Sequence record: NC_054920.1
Origin: Escherichia phage vB_EcoM_G9062
Direction: 5' to 3' (one strand)
DNA: 64,000 nt
Notes under the pieces: model-generated
What the model saw: the letters and a program-made list of their open reading frames with translations, nothing else
Told to the model about the DNA's origin: nothing
Databases searched by the model: none
Part shown: positions 25,538 through 46,097 of the stretch, piece after piece
Position numbering within the stretch: the first letter of the stretch is position 1
Layout: every line of letters begins with the position of its first letter
Program-made: the position numbers and the translations under genes

Positions 25538-25924
25538 TTATTCGAGGGAAAGAAGATACTTACTCTGGTAAAACATTCCAGTAATATCATCTATCGTGCT
25601 TTGAATGGCTGGAGGCATTTCTTTATAAATGCTGTTAGATTGATCTAGTATGCGATCAATCATTTTAATTGTGTCGGTAGGAAGTTTACTGGCATCTGGA
25701 ATTGAAGGCGTGTATTTTCTACCAGAATACCCCAAATATTGCTCACCAAATTTATCAATCAAATCTGGCAACTCGGAGAAAATAAAATCGTATGCTTTGT
25801 GTCTAGCATAACTTTTAGTTTCAAAATGTGCAGAATGAAAATAAGCTTGTGCAGCCATTAATAAACCTAAGTATTCATCTGCCTTTGAAGGTTTTCCACT
25901 TTGTGAAAAGTCGCTGAATTTCAT
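25538..25924 (-). CDS. hypothetical protein (128 aa), position of T4 rI.-1
   Basis: ORF immediately downstream of rI; synteny only. Confidence 0.4.
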
Positions 25925-26214
25925 TCAGTCTCCAATTTAATGTTCATAATTCTAGCGTATGATTGTGCCATCTCCGCGCCTCGCTCTATACATTCAAAAT
26001 CGGAAGAGCACGGGTCATTTTTATAAGTCGTTCGCATAAAACTATAGAACTGTTCAGATGATTCTACGCTTTTGTTTTCAAAAAGCATATAAACGTGTCT
26101 AATACCAGATTCCATAAATTTATCAAAATGAGAATCGACATTCGCTTCAATTGGTGGAGATAAAGCAAATGCTAATCCTAGCATGGCAAATAGTGCCGTT
26201 GCTTTTAAGGCCAT
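25921..26214 (-). CDS. rI: lysis inhibition regulator RI (membrane-anchored antiholin)
   Basis: 97 aa; MALKATALFAMLGLAFALSPPIEANVD... signal-anchor N-terminus matches my recollection of T4 RI. Confidence 0.8.
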   Translation of the reverse strand: MALKATALFAMLGLAFALSPPIEANVDSHFDKFMESGIRHVYMLFENKSVESSEQFYSFMRTTYKNDPCSSDFECIERGAEMAQSYARIMNIKLETE

Positions 26215-26226
26215 AAAGGCCTCCTA

Positions 26227-26439
26227 TCATTTTTGTCCTGTATTTACTTTATGCCGATGCACGGCCTTAACTTTATCAAGGTATTTTTCAAAATTTCGCA
26301 ATCTAGTATAGTCTGCCGGAGATTGGTTGAGTGATACTTCTCGACGCAAAGCTGAAATGATATTTCCAACTTCCCTACGAATTTCATCTAATTGAAGAAC
26401 AGTAAGATTGCGAAGTTGCTTTTCAGTTAATTGTAGCAT
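26227..26439 (-). CDS. hypothetical protein (70 aa)
   Basis: small ORF between tk and rI, preceded by a late-promoter motif. Confidence 0.4.
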
Positions 26440-26464
26440 ATATACCCCTTTAGTTAGATAAACC

Positions 26465-26472
26465 TATTTATA
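26465..26472 (-). promoter_or_regulatory. late promoter motif TATAAATA (minus strand)
   Basis: plus tatttata at 26465-26472, about 25 nt upstream of the ORF 26227..26439 start. Confidence 0.4.
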
Positions 26473-26481
26473 ACTTTTGCA

Positions 26482-27063
26482 CTAACCGAGCTTTTTAGTT
26501 AATTCATTCCAATGTTTTCTACACAAAGAAACATAAATTTCATCACCAATACAGATTTGATTACCTTCTTTAACTGGTGTTCCATCTTCCATTAATCGAG
26601 CTGTTATAATAGCTTTTTTACCACAATGACAAACTGCCTTTAGTTCAATAAGTTTATCTGCAATCGCCAAAAGTTCTTTAGAACCTTCAAATAATTTTCC
26701 AGCGAAATCAGTCCTTAGCCCATAAGCCATAACAGGAACATTATATGTATCAACAATTCGACTTAATTGATGCACCTGTTCAGTTTTTAAAAACTGAGCT
26801 TCATCTACAAATACACAATGAATATCTTTTTGTGCTTCAGCCCATTTATAGAACTCAAAAATATCCATATCATCCGTAATAATATTCGCTTCCTGCTTAA
26901 TTCCAATGCGAGAAACGACTTCACAGACAGAATCGCGAGTATCAATAGCAGGCTTAAGAACTAATACACCCATTCCGCGTTCTTTATAATTATGTGCAGC
27001 AGTCAAAAGAGAAGCAGATTTTCCAGCATTCATTGCTGCGTAAGTAAAAATTAAACTCGCCAT
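26482..27063 (-). CDS. tk: thymidine kinase
   Basis: 193 aa; P-loop NAGKSASLL; C-terminal zinc-ribbon cysteines; matches T4 Tk length and N-terminus. Confidence 0.9.
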   Translation of the reverse strand: MASLIFTYAAMNAGKSASLLTAAHNYKERGMGVLVLKPAIDTRDSVCEVVSRIGIKQEANIITDDMDIFEFYKWAEAQKDIHCVFVDEAQFLKTEQVHQLSRIVDTYNVPVMAYGLRTDFAGKLFEGSKELLAIADKLIELKAVCHCGKKAIITARLMEDGTPVKEGNQICIGDEIYVSLCRKHWNELTKKLG

Positions 27064-27072
27064 ATCACCTTC

Positions 27073-27258
27073 TTAAAGCATATTCACATAAGCTATTAAT
27101 TCGTTTTCTTTCTTATCAAACCGATCAGCAAATTCTTCTTGCTGTTCGGGAGATAGCGGGCCGTATTCATCATAAAAGGTGTTTGCTTCTGTATGCTCAT
27201 CTAGAAGTTCATGGATAAGCTCAAACAATTTATCTTTTTGTTCTTTACTCAGACTCAT
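27073..27258 (-). CDS. hypothetical acidic protein (61 aa)
   Basis: small ORF upstream of tk. Confidence 0.35.
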   Translation of the reverse strand: MSLSKEQKDKLFELIHELLDEHTEANTFYDEYGPLSPEQQEEFADRFDKKENELIAYVNML

Positions 27259-27424
27259 ATATTAATTTCCAGGAGTTTTAAAATAATTCGCTTTTGCTTA
27301 AATATTTCCATAGTTAAATGACCAGTATCTTTTTGACCGATTCCAATGGCAAAACCTTTATTGACAGCGAGTTCAATTAAATTATCAAGCTCACGTAACA
27401 CTTCATACTGTAACTCAAAACTAT

Positions 27425-27637
27425 TCATTTCGGTTTACCTTCTTTAACGAAATCTGGATAAGGATAAAATCCCGAATAAAATCCTTCACCTTTATGATTG
27501 ATGCATCCTTTATTAGAACAATAGCACCAATAATCGAAATCACAAGCCATTTCATCGTTGCATAAAGCAAAAACAACTGGCCATTTACACTTTTCACAAT
27601 GGGCATTTTTAAGAATACTAGTTTGGCTCATAACCAT
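27425..27637 (-). CDS. cysteine-rich small protein (70 aa)
   Basis: eight Cys including HCEKCKW and CYCSNKGC, suggesting a metal-binding fold. Confidence 0.35.
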   Translation of the reverse strand: MVMSQTSILKNAHCEKCKWPVVFALCNDEMACDFDYWCYCSNKGCINHKGEGFYSGFYPYPDFVKEGKPK

Positions 27638-27855
27638 GTAACCTTTAAGCAGTATTCTTCTACATGCTGTTTACGACCTTTCTTATCAATAAAGGTATAT
27701 TCAACGAATGTTCCAATGTAGTCTTTATCTACATCATGCGGACTATTAATTGGACATTTAGTACGGCAAATGCGTTCCCATTGACGAATAATTACTGCCT
27801 TATTCTTTGGGTCATATGGATGTGGATAATGTATATTCATAATAACGGTTCCCAA
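27628..27855 (-). CDS. hypothetical protein (75 aa)
   Basis: small ORF. Confidence 0.3.
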   Translation of the reverse strand: MGTVIMNIHYPHPYDPKNKAVIIRQWERICRTKCPINSPHDVDKDYIGTFVEYTFIDKKGRKQHVEEYCLKVTWL

Positions 27856-28304
27856 TCAACAATCACAATTTCTAATTTAGAGGAATATGTATCTAAAATC
27901 CCCTCAATAATATCCCAGTTCCCTTTACCTATGCCTGCACCAATCCTAGGCATATAGATTGTAGGTTTAATCAGTTTATTTTCACCAAACTCATTTAATT
28001 CTAACATACAATTCATTAAAGCGGAATACTCAAAATTTGGCCCTGGTTGAAATTGAGTATAAAGGTTGAAGCAATACGCTTTATGAGTCCTAAAATATTT
28101 TTCATAGACTGAGTAAGAACCGAGTTTAGTTACATCACCCCATTCAGTCTGTAATTTATCAGCTTCCAAAATTTTAGGGAAAGCTTTGGTTAATTGACCC
28201 GCTACGCCTGAACCCATAGTATGAAAACAATTGCATCCATGCGCAATATTTTTACCTTCAGCGAAAAGGGCGACAATATCGCCCTTGATATATTTTACAA
28301 TCAT
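27837..28304 (-). CDS. macro-domain-like protein (ADP-ribose binding/processing), 155 aa
   Basis: KGDIV...IAHGCNCFHTMGSGVAGQL and PRIGAGIGKGNW resemble the two conserved glycine-rich loops of macro domains. Confidence 0.45.
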   Translation of the reverse strand: MIVKYIKGDIVALFAEGKNIAHGCNCFHTMGSGVAGQLTKAFPKILEADKLQTEWGDVTKLGSYSVYEKYFRTHKAYCFNLYTQFQPGPNFEYSALMNCMLELNEFGENKLIKPTIYMPRIGAGIGKGNWDIIEGILDTYSSKLEIVIVDWEPLL

Positions 28305-28642
28305 CTAGTACTCAATCCTCGATTATAAGAATCTACCAAACGGTCAACCATTGAATGACAAGCGGCTTTATCTTTCTCCTCCGCAACTGAACATTCTAAG
28401 GTATTCCACTTTTTAGCATATCGTTTTAATAATGTATCGTTTTTGTATCTGCTTGATTTATCTCTTTCTCCGTCTTTATATGCATATATTAATTTCTGCG
28501 CAAATTCAGCTTGGCATGCTTTATTTTTCCCACAATAATCTGCCGCAGTGCGATTTACATATTCTCTAATTTCAGTATATGATGTATCTGCTAACGCAGA
28601 AAATGAAATTAATCCTATACATAAAACCAAAATTTTAGTCAT
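28301..28642 (-). CDS. secreted/periplasmic small protein (113 aa)
   Basis: N-terminal signal peptide MTKILVLCIGLISFSALA; four Cys. Confidence 0.4.
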   Translation of the reverse strand: MTKILVLCIGLISFSALADTSYTEIREYVNRTAADYCGKNKACQAEFAQKLIYAYKDGERDKSSRYKNDTLLKRYAKKWNTLECSVAEEKDKAACHSMVDRLVDSYNRGLSTR

Positions 28643-29180
28643 TTACTATTTCCAAAAGTTTATTATTTTTAAGGTAATTAGCCTTTTCTAGGACTTCAGA
28701 AGCATATTTAGAACCTGCTTTAACATTCCATCCCGAATTATAAGATGATATTGCTTTTCTTATATCGCCCTTATGTATATTTAACCAATAAGAAAGTTCA
28801 ATGTACGCCCAGGAAGCTGAATTGGATCGTTTATTCAACATTCTTTTTATTTCAGCATCGGTCATATTATAACCAAGTTCCTTAACTCTTGCTCGCATAG
28901 TAGGCAAATAATTTTGGAACATTCCATAAGCGTGATGCTTTGGTTTAGATTTTAAATTAACTCCGCCAGAGCTTTCTTGCCATAAAATAGCAGCCATTAT
29001 ATGACCTAATCCGCTCTTGTGGATATTTTTGTGTGTTTTATATTTTCCATCCTTAGAAAATTGTTCCCCGAATTGATACGCGTAACGCATGTTATCGAGT
29101 TGGACATTACTGAAAGTATGCTCGGAGCTATGTGCCATCATTGAAATGGCCAATAGACCAGCGAGTAGTGCTTTTCTCAT
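28635..29180 (-). CDS. secreted lytic transglycosylase-like protein (SLT domain), 181 aa
   Basis: signal peptide MRKALLAGLLAISMMAHS; catalytic-type motif WQESSGG, then YGMFQ and SSYNSGW. Confidence 0.5.
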   Translation of the reverse strand: MRKALLAGLLAISMMAHSSEHTFSNVQLDNMRYAYQFGEQFSKDGKYKTHKNIHKSGLGHIMAAILWQESSGGVNLKSKPKHHAYGMFQNYLPTMRARVKELGYNMTDAEIKRMLNKRSNSASWAYIELSYWLNIHKGDIRKAISSYNSGWNVKAGSKYASEVLEKANYLKNNKLLEIVND

Positions 29181-29187
29181 GCTTACC

Positions 29188-29649
29188 TCATTGAGTTTTA
29201 ATTACTGCTTTAGAAGCCTTTCCTGGTAAACGACGACTGTTGATAATTGCCATCCTGCATTGAAGTGACGGGTTTTTGAACTTCTCATTAGGCTTACAAA
29301 CCGTAAATCCAAGCCAAAGATTTCCATCTGTGATTTCTAAACGTCCAGGACGATATTCAACCCCATCAATAAAATCCTCGTCAATGTCAGGACGCGGAGG
29401 CATACTCAGGAATTCATTAACTTCTAAAACATGGTCTTTTATTTTATGGAATAATTCAAAAACATATGTCTCATCAATCTCCCGTTGAATTGCACGATCA
29501 AGAAGATGTTGAGAATATTTTAGATGAAACGATGAGACTCCTGCTGCTTTTGATGCCTCACGAATCTCATTGTTAATTTGACGAAACTCCGACTCAAAAT
29601 GACGACGAAGCTTATTTCTACGGATAAAAACTTCTGTATTGATAGTCAT
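29188..29649 (-). CDS. regB: sequence-specific endoribonuclease RegB
   Basis: 153 aa; MTINTEVFIRRNKLRRHFESEFRQ... matches my recollection of T4 RegB; preceded by an early promoter. Confidence 0.8.
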   Translation of the reverse strand: MTINTEVFIRRNKLRRHFESEFRQINNEIREASKAAGVSSFHLKYSQHLLDRAIQREIDETYVFELFHKIKDHVLEVNEFLSMPPRPDIDEDFIDGVEYRPGRLEITDGNLWLGFTVCKPNEKFKNPSLQCRMAIINSRRLPGKASKAVIKTQ

Positions 29650-29676
29650 GTTATTCTCCTCTTAACTGATAGAAAA

Positions 29677-29706
29677 ATTATACCACAGTCAAGAGGAAAA
29701 GTAAAC
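29677..29706 (-). promoter_or_regulatory. early promoter of regB (minus strand GTTTAC, 18-nt spacer, TATAAT)
   Basis: plus gtaaac 29701-29706, attata 29677-29682; AGAGGAGA RBS then ATG. Confidence 0.55.
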
Positions 29707-29708
29707 AG

Positions 29709-30029
29709 TTATTCTTTAAATCTAATCAATTTATTCATAGACTTTGTAACTTCTGCACGAACCTCATGTAAGTTTTTAAGCTGTTCAAGACTTTGCTCAT
29801 AGTAAGCAATTTCATCTTCTTCGAGGCAGTCCTGTGAATCTTCTTTAAGATAACGTGCATAGTCCTGGAAAGCTTTACGGACTACTTCCTGGAAGTCATC
29901 AAGACTTTGAATTTTCTTAGGAGCAACAGATACACGACGAGGGGCAGTATAATACTCATAACCAAACCCTGCGCTTAATTGAGCCATTAGTATTTTTCCT
30001 CTGGTTGGAACACTGCGCGACAAGCCCAC
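29709..30029 (-). CDS. hypothetical protein (106 aa)
   Basis: ORF upstream of regB. Confidence 0.35.
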
Positions 30030-30253
30030 ATACTGGCTTCTTTGAGTTTCATTTTAGCAATAGTTAACTGATCGAGGCTTTCGGCGTAATTCTTCGCGAG
30101 TTCATCATCTTCACAGCTATCAAATGCTTCCCAGAATTCATCATATAAAGCATCAAAGATAAGCCCTAAACGAACTTCAGCATCTTTGATAGCATTCACT
30201 TTACTGATTTTATCGTCAGTATGTGGTTTATAACCTTTAATGTCTTCAATCAT
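29987..30253 (-). CDS. hypothetical acidic protein (88 aa)
   Basis: small ORF. Confidence 0.35.
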
Positions 30254-30467
30254 ATTTTACTTCCTCACCTGTTCCCAAATCATATTCAACTAAACGAATA
30301 GGTTCATGAATGCCATATCCTTGAACAGAAATTTCTGTCGTAGGATAAATTCCATTAATATCACCCATGTTCCATGCTTCGTTAAATTGCTGTTCGCCTG
30401 AATTACTAAACCACTCGGCGAAAGCATTTAGCACATCTTCAGAACCTTCAATAATTATCTTTGCCAT
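30246..30467 (-). CDS. hypothetical protein (73 aa)
   Basis: small ORF. Confidence 0.35.
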   Translation of the reverse strand: MAKIIIEGSEDVLNAFAEWFSNSGEQQFNEAWNMGDINGIYPTTEISVQGYGIHEPIRLVEYDLGTGEEVKYD

Positions 30468-30829
30468 TACAAACTCTCGGTGAAGGTACGAGCGATAACG
30501 TCGCGCTGCTGTTCCGGAGTCAGAGAGTTAAAGCGAACTGCATAACCGGATACACGGATGGTCAGCTGCGGATATTTTTCCGGATGCTTAACTGCATCTT
30601 CCAGAGTTTCACGACGCAGAACGTTAACGTTCAGGTGTTGACCACCTTCAATTTTAACTGTAGGCTGTTGCTCAATTTCAATTTCACGGGCATGCAAACC
30701 ATAGAAAATTTCTGGGTCTACAAAAGAGTCCTCTTTAAAGGTTTTAGAGACAATAATTCGTGCTTGAATACCATCTTCAAAATAAATAGTACCTTTATGT
30801 GTGCCTTCAAGAATTTGATATGCTTTCAT
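30467..30829 (-). CDS. autonomous glycyl radical cofactor (GrcA/YfiD-like; T4 Y06I-type)
   Basis: C-terminal [60 protein letters not shown] carries the glycyl-radical RVSGY motif and matches E. coli GrcA as I recall it. Confidence 0.8.
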
Positions 30830-30835
30830 ATAACC

Positions 30836-31216
30836 TCAATTAGAAAATAAATTTATCCAAGATTGTTCTTTAATTAAAAATGGCTCAGAATCATATGCCA
30901 TTAAACTCTGTGTGATTAGTCCTTTAAAAGGCCCATCAATAAATTCCATGGTAAAATATGGAATTTTATTCATTAGCCGTGCATTAGGAGCCGTGCACAA
31001 AACTCTGCATCCTTTGAATACGCCTTTTTGTAATTTGTATTGCTTGGGATAAAATTCGCTCAAAATGTTATTTTTTGCCAAAATTTCAAAATGATTCACC
31101 AATTTATTTTTAATAGTTTTTGGCGAAAAATAAAGATATTCGAAAAGCTGAGTGTCTGTCATCATTGCATTCCGATTACGAAAAACTGTGGACGAGTAAT
31201 ACCACCAATGCAACAT
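30836..31216 (-). CDS. hypothetical protein (126 aa)
   Basis: ORF; start uncertain. Confidence 0.35.
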   Translation of the reverse strand: MLHWWYYSSTVFRNRNAMMTDTQLFEYLYFSPKTIKNKLVNHFEILAKNNILSEFYPKQYKLQKGVFKGCRVLCTAPNARLMNKIPYFTMEFIDGPFKGLITQSLMAYDSEPFLIKEQSWINLFSN

Positions 31217-44386: not shown

Positions 44387-46097
44387 TAACCTTAATTGGT
44401 TTGTTGGTGTTGTTGAAGATAGAATGGACCCATTAAAATTAGGTCGTGTTCGTGTTCGTGTGGTTGGTCTGCATCCACCTCAAAGAGCACAAGGCGATGT
44501 AATGGGTATTCCAACTGAAAAATTACCATGGATGTCAGTTATTCAACCTATAACTTCTGCAGCAATGTCTGGAATTGGAGGTTCTGTTACTGGACCGGTA
44601 GAAGGAACTAGAGTTTATGGTCATTTTTTAGACAAATGGAAAACTAACGGAATTGTCCTTGGCACGTATGGTGGAATAGTTCGCGAAAAACCGAATAGAC
44701 TTGAAGGATTTTCTGACCCAACTGGGCAATATCCTAGACGTTTAGGAAATGATACTAATGTATTAAACCAAGGCGGAGAAGTAGGATATGATTCGTCTTC
44801 TAACATTATCCAAGATAGTAACTTAGACACTGCAATAAATCCCGATGATAGACCACTATCAGAGATTCCAACCGATGATAATCCAAATATGTCAATGGCT
44901 GACATGCTTCGCCGTGATGAAGGATTAAGACTAAAAGTTTATTGGGATACTGAAGGATATCCGACAATTGGTATTGGTCATCTTATCATGAAGCAGCCAG
45001 TTCGTGATATGGCTCAAATTAATAAAGTTTTATCAAAACAAGTTGGTCGTGAAATTACTGGAAACCCAGGTTCTATTACGATGGAAGAGGCGACGACTTT
45101 ATTTGAACGTGATTTGGCTGATATGCAACGGGACATTAAATCACATTCTAAAGTAGGACCAGTCTGGCAAGCTGTCAACCGTTCTCGTCAAATGGCGTTA
45201 GAAAATATGGCATTTCAAATGGGTGTTGGCGGTGTAGCTAAATTTAACACAATGTTAACTGCTATGTTAGCCGGAGATTGGGAAAAAGCATATAAAGCCG
45301 GTCGTGATTCATTGTGGTATCAACAAACAAAAGGCCGTGCATCCCGTGTTACCATGATTATTCTTACGGGGAATTTGGAATCATATGGTGTTGAAGTGAA
45401 AACCCCAGCTAGGTCTCTATCAGCAATGGCTGCTACTGTAGCTAAATCTTCTGACCCGGCTGACCCTCCTATTCCAAATGACTCGAGAATTTTATTCAAA
45501 GAACCAGTTTCTTCATATAAAGGTGAATATCCTTATGTGCATACAATGGAAACTGAAAGCGGACATATTCAGGAATTTGATGATACTCCTGGGCAAGAAC
45601 GATACAGATTAGTTCATCCGACTGGAACTTATGAAGAAGTATCACCGTCAGGAAGAAGAACAAGAAAAACTGTCGATAATTTGTATGATATAACCAACGC
45701 TGATGGTAATTTTTTGGTAGCCGGTGATAAAAAGACTAACGTCGGTGGATCAGAAATTTATTACAACATGGATAATCGTCTTCACCAAATAGATGGAAGC
45801 AATACAATATTTGTACGTGGCGATGAAACTAAGACAGTTGAAGGCAATGGAACTATCCTAGTTAAAGGTAATGTTACTATTGTAGTTGAAGGTAATGCTG
45901 ACATTACAGTTAAAGGAGATGCTACCACTTTAGTTGAAGGAAATCAAACTAACACAGTAAATGGAAATCTTTCTTGGAAAGTTGCTGGGACAGTTGATTG
46001 GGACGTTGGTGGTGATTGGACAGAAAAAATGGCATCTATGAGTTCTATTTCATCTGGTCAATACACAATTGATGGATCGAGGATTGACATTGGCTAA
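44370..46097 (+). CDS. 5: baseplate hub subunit and tail lysozyme gp5
   Basis: 575 aa; internal lysozyme domain DEGLRLKVYWDTEGYPTIGIGHL (paralogous to gene e); C-terminal VxGxxxxx beta-helix repeats. Confidence 0.9.
   Translation: MEMISNNLNWFVGVVEDRMDPLKLGRVRVRVVGLHPPQRAQGDVMGIPTEKLPWMSVIQPITSAAMSGIGGSVTGPVEGTRVYGHFLDKWKTNGIVLGTYGGIVREKPNRLEGFSDPTGQYPRRLGNDTNVLNQGGEVGYDSSSNIIQDSNLDTAINPDDRPLSEIPTDDNPNMSMADMLRRDEGLRLKVYWDTEGYPTIGIGHLIMKQPVRDMAQINKVLSKQVGREITGNPGSITMEEATTLFERDLADMQRDIKSHSKVGPVWQAVNRSRQMALENMAFQMGVGGVAKFNTMLTAMLAGDWEKAYKAGRDSLWYQQTKGRASRVTMIILTGNLESYGVEVKTPARSLSAMAATVAKSSDPADPPIPNDSRILFKEPVSSYKGEYPYVHTMETESGHIQEFDDTPGQERYRLVHPTGTYEEVSPSGRRTRKTVDNLYDITNADGNFLVAGDKKTNVGGSEIYYNMDNRLHQIDGSNTIFVRGDETKTVEGNGTILVKGNVTIVVEGNADITVKGDATTLVEGNQTNTVNGNLSWKVAGTVDWDVGGDWTEKMASMSSISSGQYTIDGSRIDIG

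Follow-up and report, generated by a model that had tools for sequence, protein, structure and literature searches.

The vs.1-vs gene pair of a T4-type phage as a predicted module of two exported proteins, one of them of the transglycosylase SLT type

Introduction

Does a T4-type phage send a further murein-modifying enzyme to the periplasm, in addition to the cytoplasmic endolysin e and the gp5 tail lysozyme, and what is encoded beside it? This question is raised by two neighbouring open reading frames (ORFs) in a stretch of 64,000 nucleotides (nt) from Escherichia phage vB_EcoM_G9062 (NC_054920.1), hereafter the window. An original prediction had described them as a pair of signal-peptide proteins, one resembling a lytic transglycosylase. 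Both ORFs are present, on the minus strand, which had not been given (Table 1). The window belongs to a T4-type phage (Tequatrovirus): the 1.9 kb around the pair is 99.8% identical to many Tequatrovirus genomes, and the T4 reference carries tk.4, vs, vs.1 and regB at the corresponding positions on one shared strand. The pair consists of the known phage T4 genes vs.1 and vs, an identity that the original prediction had missed. T4 vs.1 is ORF 61.4 of X04567, and the vs ORF was listed merely as 'ORF 60.9' in the original sequence record. Compared with T4 Vs.1 and its orthologues in Straboviridae, we see the identical protein in the same place between regB and vs, without difference, i.e. the same gene.

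Part of the answer had already been given. The SLT similarity of vs.1 was published with Pfam SLT E-values of 0.012-0.74 in six of six genomes, together with a citation of earlier PSI-BLAST results (Nolan et al. 2006), and many Vs.1 orthologues are named 'Transglycosylase SLT domain-containing protein' in UniRef. The finding of the original prediction was thus known. Since the 113-amino acid (aa) ORF is annotated as a valyl-tRNA synthetase (ValRS) modifier, its signal peptide and cysteines are the more surprising part. We infer here the coupling of vs.1 to vs, the breadth of the Vs family and a conflict between the topology of Vs and its annotation, none of which was found in the literature searched. 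Our preferred reading, which we hold to be probable, is that of an early two-gene module, vs.1 and vs, which is coupled in translation and has both of its products leave by Sec to serve an accessory remodelling of murein.

Results

Vs.1 carries the profile and the motifs of SLT enzymes

The three motifs on which the transglycosylase assignment had been based, WQESSGG (residues 67-73), YGMFQ (85-89) and SSYNSGW (145-151), are all present in the vs.1 ORF. With the PF01464 hidden Markov model, Vs.1 matched SLT with a score of 25.1 bits (gathering cut-off 21.3; E-value 1.4e-5), its residues 61-154 aligning to profile positions 16-101 of 117. SLT was also matched by 27 of 30 diverse Vs.1 relatives (E ≤ 0.01, best 1.3e-7), and no other Pfam family was. 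In PHROGs, Vs.1 fell into phrog_600 (unknown function), with weaker matches to SLT-containing lytic tail proteins and endolysins; NCBIfam gave no match for either Vs.1 or Vs. The Vs.1 family comprises 77 clusters at 90% identity, with tblastn matches in 2044 phage records. It is found in Straboviridae of many hosts and, at about 30% identity, in Ackermannviridae (Det7 gp70) and in Felixounavirus proteins named 'putative lysin'. A tblastn search of 72,556 plasmids with Vs.1, in which relatives of the P19/VirB1 type were sought, returned none at E ≤ 0.1.

Conservation was examined in an alignment of 30 Vs.1 relatives (A1) and in an alignment of Vs.1 homologues across three myovirus groups (A5). 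E69, G86, Q89, E128, W132, S146-Y147-N148-x-G150 and Y159 were invariant throughout both; S70 was nearly invariant and F88 was invariant in the 30 sequences of A1. We take the conserved motifs to be the counterparts of E-S, G-L-M-Q and A-Y-N-x-G in family 1 lytic transglycosylases. The invariance of all three, E-S dyad included, argues for a working active site in Vs.1.

The AlphaFold2 (AF2) model of Vs.1 reached a predicted local distance difference test score (pLDDT) of 88.2 and a predicted TM-score of 0.82, the signal peptide being of low pLDDT and detached from the fold. When this model was compared with PDB by Foldseek, the first 21 matches were all lytic transglycosylases (MltD, Slt, LtgA, Slt70) or a chitinase of glycoside hydrolase family 23 (GH23), at probabilities of 0.69-1.0, and the phi6 P5 lysin came next. 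The predicted mature protein has 163 aa, 18.8 kDa, an isoelectric point (pI) of 9.65 and zero cysteines. From these comparisons, Vs.1 is most likely an exported murein glycosidase of the GH23/SLT type, predicted to act as a lytic transglycosylase with Glu69. That the phage directs to the periplasm an activity that modifies murein, in addition to e and gp5, is accordingly the best-supported prediction, given the SLT match, the conserved signals described below and the AF2/Foldseek matches; the window does contain both the endolysin gene e (at about 32.7-32.8 kb on the minus strand) and the lysozyme motif of gene 5 (position 44946, plus strand).

A split match was noticed in the phage T6 record AP018814.1 (59938-60481), where the Vs.1 match of 99.4% identity comes in two pieces and spans 544 nt rather than 543, which points to either a frameshift in vs.1 or an error of sequencing; the features annotated beneath the match are 'rI antiholin' and 'hypothetical protein'.

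Both proteins carry predicted export signals

Signal peptides, claimed for both ORFs, were looked for with a simple home-made rule (positive n-region, h-region of 8-15 residues, small residues at -3 and -1). In Vs.1 the rule recognized MRKALLAGLLAISMMAHS, followed by SEH, with a positively charged n-region, an uncharged hydrophobic core of 13 residues and the site A-H-S (MRK, then ALLAGLLAISMMA, then AHS before S). In Vs it recognized MTKILVLCIGLISFSALA, followed by DTSY, with a canonical A-L-A site (MTK, then ILVLCIGLISFS, then ALA before D). By inspection, a lipobox is absent from both proteins. Thus an SLT profile match and a predicted signal peptide, the two features whose absence had been named as refuting the original prediction, were both found.

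The rule was passed by 72 of 77 Vs.1 relatives and by 64 of 70 Vs relatives (about 90% each), the failures being mostly truncated N-termini, and a hydrophobic N-terminus was retained in all 30 aligned Vs.1 relatives. The N-terminal signals drift in sequence yet retain their character, which argues for selection on export. Across the window, 10 of the 139 ATG-initiated ORFs of at least 60 aa passed; the known periplasmic protein RI was among them, and several of the other passers have very short h-regions and look like false positives. Cysteine content was similarly constant after removal of the signals: mature Vs.1 was cysteine-free in 69 of 72 sequences and mature Vs had exactly four cysteines in 61 of 64.

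The signal region is also where Vs differs from T4 Vs (NP_049724). The sole difference lies in the c-region, SFSASASA in T4 and SFSALA here, i.e. a deletion of 2 aa and one substitution. At residues 15-18 of Vs (28589..28600, minus strand), both forms of the c-region occur among close relatives, as 113-aa and 115-aa versions.

Vs is a family of its own with four invariant cysteines

Four cysteines had been reported for the 113-aa ORF. The Vs precursor contains five; because the fifth, C8, lies inside the signal peptide, the count of four holds for the mature protein (C37, C43, C84 and C95). All four are invariant in the Vs family alignment. Vs matched phrog_1256 at an E-value of 5e-40, and all its relatives carry the precomputed PF26829. 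A search with the single sequence yielded six clusters and a HMMER scan of 1.84 billion representatives eight. The ORFs directly 3′ of vs.1 in Acinetobacter phage Mokit and Klebsiella phage Roth51 proved to be remote Vs homologues that share the four cysteines, N40, G58, L71 and a Y-x-x-G-L C-terminus, and with a profile including these two, 72 Vs clusters were recovered, all of them PF26829.

The AF2 model of Vs (pLDDT 79) has four helices, with C37 and C43 flanking the first hairpin turn and C84 and C95 the second. The precursor has a mass of 12.9 kDa and the predicted mature form 95 aa, 11.0 kDa and a pI of 8.9. No internal start codon able to yield a signal-less form is found before M98. 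Structural comparison gave no relatives: among the matches listed (the best 50 of 75), the best E-value of the Vs model against PDB by Foldseek was 1.6, BFVD returned members of the Vs family alone, and a search of PDB sequences with the Vs-family profile gave a single spurious match to CHMP4B (E 0.2).

A relationship of Vs to the DUF1311/LprI lysozyme inhibitors (PF07007) was considered and rejected. The idea arose from a very weak Foldseek match to 3gi7 (probability 0.03-0.05, TM-score 0.19-0.27), and none of 11 family members matched this Pfam family at E ≤ 10. The Pfam match of Vs to Cauli_AT (E 0.076) is below the cut-off and was judged to be due to chance. N-terminally His-tagged full-length Vs was insoluble (Zhang et al. 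2021), as would be expected if an uncleaved signal peptide and unpaired cysteines stay in the cytoplasm.

vs follows vs.1 at 51 related loci

The start codon of vs overlaps the stop codon of vs.1 by 8 nt, which suggests translational coupling. This junction was compared in 51 viral loci of IMG/VR, retrieved by conserved Vs.1 peptide patterns and belonging to one virus family. A Vs-family ORF lies 3′ of vs.1 in 51 of 51, and in 50 of them the distance from the vs.1 stop to the vs start is -8 to +3 nt, with the same -8 overlap at the T4-type loci; the remaining locus has a truncated Vs ORF of 61 aa, 141 nt downstream of vs.1. At the same loci regB adjoins upstream in 43 and tk.4 adjoins downstream in 27. 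The seven most divergent loci have neither regB nor tk.4 nearby and retain the vs.1-vs pair. The two genes are also adjacent in Acinetobacter, Klebsiella and Krischvirus phages, and in a Pseudotevenvirus a single ORF is inserted between them.

Other arrangements were also seen. In Aeromonas phage 31 (L003:2605-3296), vs.1 is followed, in place of Vs, by a 75-aa ORF with no signal peptide and by a putative membrane lipoprotein of 146 aa. Det7 gp70 (L057:1953-2570) and gp58 of the Felixounavirus garuso (L002:4001-4549) are distant Vs.1-like SLT proteins, predicted to be exported, beside which no Vs was detected. Unlike Vs.1 of Straboviridae they carry 3-4 cysteines, and Det7 gp70 has a C-terminal extension; the garuso gene comes directly after rIIA-rIIB, about 1.2 kb before the spanin genes.

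Between vs and tk.4, many relatives encode a third protein with a signal peptide, of about 130-141 aa, with 2-4 cysteines and a conserved C-terminal N-E-Y-x-T-Y-K, for instance in Klebsiella phage Roth51 (L005:2863-3255) and Acinetobacter phage Mokit (L004:2824-3249). The gap between vs and tk.4 measures about 380-650 nt in about 18 of the 51 loci (L006-L056). As the third ORF is absent here and in T4, the periplasmic cluster is larger in other T4-like phages.

Expression and mutant phenotypes

A T4 early-type promoter upstream of regB (Table 1) likely drives regB-vs.1-vs-tk.4, and no obvious terminator was seen on the coding strand before tk.4. Both vs and vs.1 were classed as early RNA and middle protein (Wolfram-Schauerte et al. 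2022), so that both proteins are made. In the leader of regB (29650..29705, minus strand) this strong early promoter is combined with the Shine-Dalgarno sequence GGAG (aagaGGAGaataacATG), the motif at which RegB cleaves; vs.1 has GAGG, not GGAG, as its Shine-Dalgarno sequence.

In the HIDEN-SEQ transposon study (bioRxiv 10.1101/2025.11.20.689424), vs and vs.1 were both non-essential. Reads per site after competition in liquid LB were 26.6 for vs and 22.6 for vs.1, as compared with 178.6 for regB, 289.6 for tk.4 and 652 for vs.3, i.e. insertions in the pair were 7- to 25-fold rarer than in flanking non-essential genes. When M9-glucose was compared with LB, vs was the most depleted gene (log2 fold change -2.19, adjusted p 0), with a weaker effect for vs.1 (log2 fold change -0.87, p 0.0055, adjusted p 0.155). 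In the clinical strain CFE299 vs.1 was significantly depleted (log2 fold change -1.20, adjusted p 0.015), and a clean vs knockout made poor plaques on M9. These phenotypes are compatible with a shared pathway, and do not separate polarity, partnership and antagonism.

Discussion

A proposed periplasmic module

We propose the following scheme, in which we infer export, disulfides, lytic-transglycosylase chemistry, a Vs.1-Vs partnership and a biological role. Sec would carry both products into the periplasm of the infected cell. There, Vs.1 would lose its 18-residue signal peptide to become a small, basic, single-domain GH23/SLT enzyme and, with Glu69 as the single acid/base by analogy with family 1 lytic transglycosylases, would cut the β-1,4 bond between N-acetylmuramic acid (MurNAc) and N-acetylglucosamine (GlcNAc) of murein non-hydrolytically, leaving 1,6-anhydroMurNAc ends. 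Mature Vs would consist of two helical hairpins whose C-x5-C and C-x10-C pairs probably form disulfide staples in the periplasm, and in this scheme it would most likely work together with Vs.1 or act on it, be it as a regulator, an inhibitor or a targeting subunit. The module would be separate from entry (gp5 lysozyme) and from lysis (endolysin e), dispensable in the laboratory and relevant to fitness. As to its role, it could open murein locally, remodel it while infection is prolonged or lysis inhibited, or affect superinfection.

The stronger form of this proposal, in which Vs is an exported, disulfide-stapled periplasmic partner of Vs.1 (regulator, inhibitor or targeting subunit) and the two make up a conserved murein-remodelling module across Straboviridae, is put forward tentatively, as a possibility short of an even chance. 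Pointing to the periplasm are the conserved and predicted cleavable signal of Vs, its four conserved cysteines, the absence of an internal start before M98 and the strict coupling of its gene to that of a predicted exported enzyme. If this is true, the minimal-medium defect of vs mutants would be an envelope phenotype, caused for example by unrestrained or mis-targeted Vs.1, and ValRS modification would be the work of another ORF or come from binding that takes place once cells are broken.

Several points weigh against the proposal. The signal calls come from our rule and not from SignalP. The structural matches of Vs.1 are weak in absolute terms (best Foldseek E-value 7.5e-3, TM-scores 0.43-0.54). 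Local hhalign alignments placed E69-S70 on E505-S506 of the Slt70 precursor (E505 presumably being E478 of the mature enzyme, assuming a 27-aa signal peptide) and on E64-S65 of MltE, at E-values of 0.33 and 0.17 that are non-significant alone. A search of PDB sequences with the Vs.1-family profile gave nothing significant, its lone match being the C-terminal segment of a goose-type lysozyme (E 0.33), and the chemistry of a hydrolase such as this lysozyme is indistinguishable from that of a transglycosylase at the level of sequence. As for the pair, no Vs was detected beside vs.1 in Aeromonas phage 31 or beside the homologous genes of Det7 and Felixounavirus; since the 51 loci were found through Vs.1 peptides in a single virus family, shared ancestry contributes to the coupling. 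Transposon insertions in vs.1 may be polar on vs. Finally, the textbook function of Vs, cytoplasmic binding of ValRS, contradicts a periplasmic partnership, and the authors who describe the vs knockout read its minimal-medium phenotype in the light of ValRS function.

Relation to known murein enzymes and inhibitors

With the family 1 lytic transglycosylases (Slt70, MltE/EmtA, MltC, MltD), Vs.1 shares E-S, G-x-x-Q and Y-N-x-G, possibly a lysozyme-like helical fold, and a predicted periplasmic location. It differs from them in being very distant (14-17% identity in structural alignments), in consisting of a single domain of 163 aa with no lipobox, LysM or superhelical domain, and in being encoded by a phage and expressed early. 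The specialised small exported lytic transglycosylases P19 of R1 and Orf169 of F, VirB1, IagB, IpgF and EtgA resemble the predicted Vs.1 in build, measuring about 150-200 aa and combining a Sec signal with one SLT domain. These P19/VirB1-type enzymes belong to secretion and conjugation machines, of which they are accessory, non-essential parts believed to make local openings in murein. We know of no envelope-spanning machine associated with Vs.1.

For an inhibitory role of Vs, which is a hypothesis, T4 Spackle (gp61.3) provides the concept. This periplasmic inhibitor of the gp5 tail lysozyme is small, early, Sec-exported, helical and disulfide-containing, and is not encoded beside its target. 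No Spackle structure was among the PDB matches of the Vs model (the best 50 of 75).

Alternative readings of Vs and Vs.1

ValRS binding needs a cytoplasmic location, and this is not where the predicted topology puts Vs, with which its modifier label therefore appears to be in tension. According to the textbook account, Vs is a cytoplasmic 'tau' factor that binds host ValRS; its N-terminus would be no working signal, or the pool would be partly exported, its adjacency to vs.1 would be synteny, and Vs.1 would act alone. Every database annotation gives Vs as a valyl-tRNA synthetase modifier, and a knockout plaque defect specific to minimal medium is plausible for a translation-related factor. The factor of Muller and Marchin is reportedly of about 10 kDa, with which the predicted Vs, of 12.9 kDa as precursor and 11.0 kDa when mature, is compatible. 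However, an n-h-c signal with an A-x-A site is kept in 64 of 70 relatives despite sequence drift, along with exactly four conserved cysteines in the mature protein; an internal start before M98 cannot provide a signal-less form; and the coupling to the gene of an exported enzyme is strict even where regB and tk.4 are missing. Moreover, no experiment assigning the genetic vs locus to this ORF was found in the literature searched, the original record having no more than 'ORF 60.9'. We consequently keep the textbook account, with its purely cytoplasmic role, as an unlikely but live rival, at roughly one chance among a few.

Concerning Vs.1, it is improbable that the protein is a degenerate, non-catalytic SLT-like murein-binding protein, or else a true hydrolase of the goose-type lysozyme or chitinase-like GH23 kind. 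The best TM-scores in Foldseek (0.49-0.54) were obtained with the GH23 chitinase, fungal muramidases were also matched, the lone PDB sequence match pointed to goose-type lysozyme as said above, and a second invariant acidic residue, E128, is present. On the other side, the three family 1 transglycosylase motifs are invariant down to the E-S dyad, and Pfam gives SLT and no other family.

We think it very improbable that Vs.1 is an auxiliary secretory or signal-arrest-release (SAR) endolysin, exported early, held inactive or membrane-tethered and freed at holin triggering to aid e: such a role would suit a hydrophobic N-terminal segment on a muralytic domain, Felixounavirus homologues annotated 'putative lysin' about 1.2 kb from spanin genes and the presence in the window of RI, a known SAR protein whose gene stands about 2.4 kb from the pair, but the h-region of only about 13 residues with a small-x-small site is typical of a cleaved signal and not of the uncleaved Gly/Ala-rich anchor of 17-20 residues, transcription is early instead of late, and vs.1 is non-essential, so that the anchor, the late expression and the need in lysis that define SAR endolysins are all lacking. 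T4 e mutants fail to lyse, and Vs.1 therefore cannot replace e. The Felixounavirus 'putative lysin' was likewise discarded as a real endolysin, Felix O1 having, in addition to its Vs.1-like gene, an endolysin of its own in gp35 (Phage_lysozyme).

What a coupled, exported pair would mean

A rediscovered T4 gene pair with a published domain prediction changes little alone. Should our further observations be borne out, a small exported SLT enzyme, extra to the entry lysozyme and the endolysin, would be conserved in no fewer than three myovirus groups (Straboviridae, Ackermannviridae and Felixounavirus), and in Straboviridae it would be locked to a second exported protein with an ill-fitting textbook function. 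Settling the matter would either put right a gene assignment that has stood for 50 years in the best-studied phage or bring to light an unusual protein with two locations, and would also offer a mechanistic way into the recently reported fitness defect that vs mutants show depending on the medium.

Features and neighbouring genes

Table 1. Coordinates of the vs.1-vs pair, its predicted elements and the upstream promoter (window positions)
Feature	Position	Strand	Basis or remark
vs.1 CDS (coding sequence), 181 aa	28635..29180	minus	100% identical to T4 NP_049725; phrog_600; Pfam SLT
vs CDS, 113 aa, annotated 'valyl tRNA synthetase modifier'	28301..28642	minus	97% identical to T4 Vs; phrog_1256
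Vs.1 predicted signal peptide, residues 1-18, MRKALLAGLLAISMMAHS, cleavage expected after A-H-S	29127..29180	minus	hydropathy and rule-based check
Glu69 codon, predicted catalytic acid/base, E-S motif I	28974..28976	minus	invariant in alignments
Motif II Y-G-M-F-Q, residues 85-89, counterpart of G-L-M-Q	28914..28928	minus	
Motif III S-S-Y-N-S-G-W, residues 145-151, counterpart of A-Y-N-x-G	28728..28748	minus	
Vs predicted signal peptide, residues 1-18, MTKILVLCIGLISFSALA, A-L-A cleavage site	28589..28642	minus	rule-based check
8-nt overlap ATGACTAA, vs start / vs.1 stop codon	28635..28642	minus	sequence
T4 early-type promoter GTTTACT ... TGGTATAAT, upstream of regB	29677..29705	minus	promoter scan and sequence

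ORFs on the plus strand around the pair do not exceed 47 aa, and an Rfam scan of 26000-31000 gave no match. The next gene downstream, tk.4 (27837..28304, minus strand), overlaps the vs stop by 4 nt and encodes a macro-domain protein (Pfam Macro, 27.7 bits); it was renamed AdfM in a 2025 preprint and protects T4 from the DarTG2 defence system. Further downstream, about 2.4 kb from the pair, the rI antiholin ORF (25921..26214, minus strand) passes the signal rule with MALKATALFAMLGLAFALSPPIEA. Genes for periplasmic proteins thus cluster around the pair, rI lying near it here and, in Acinetobacter phage Mokit, only three genes behind vs.1.

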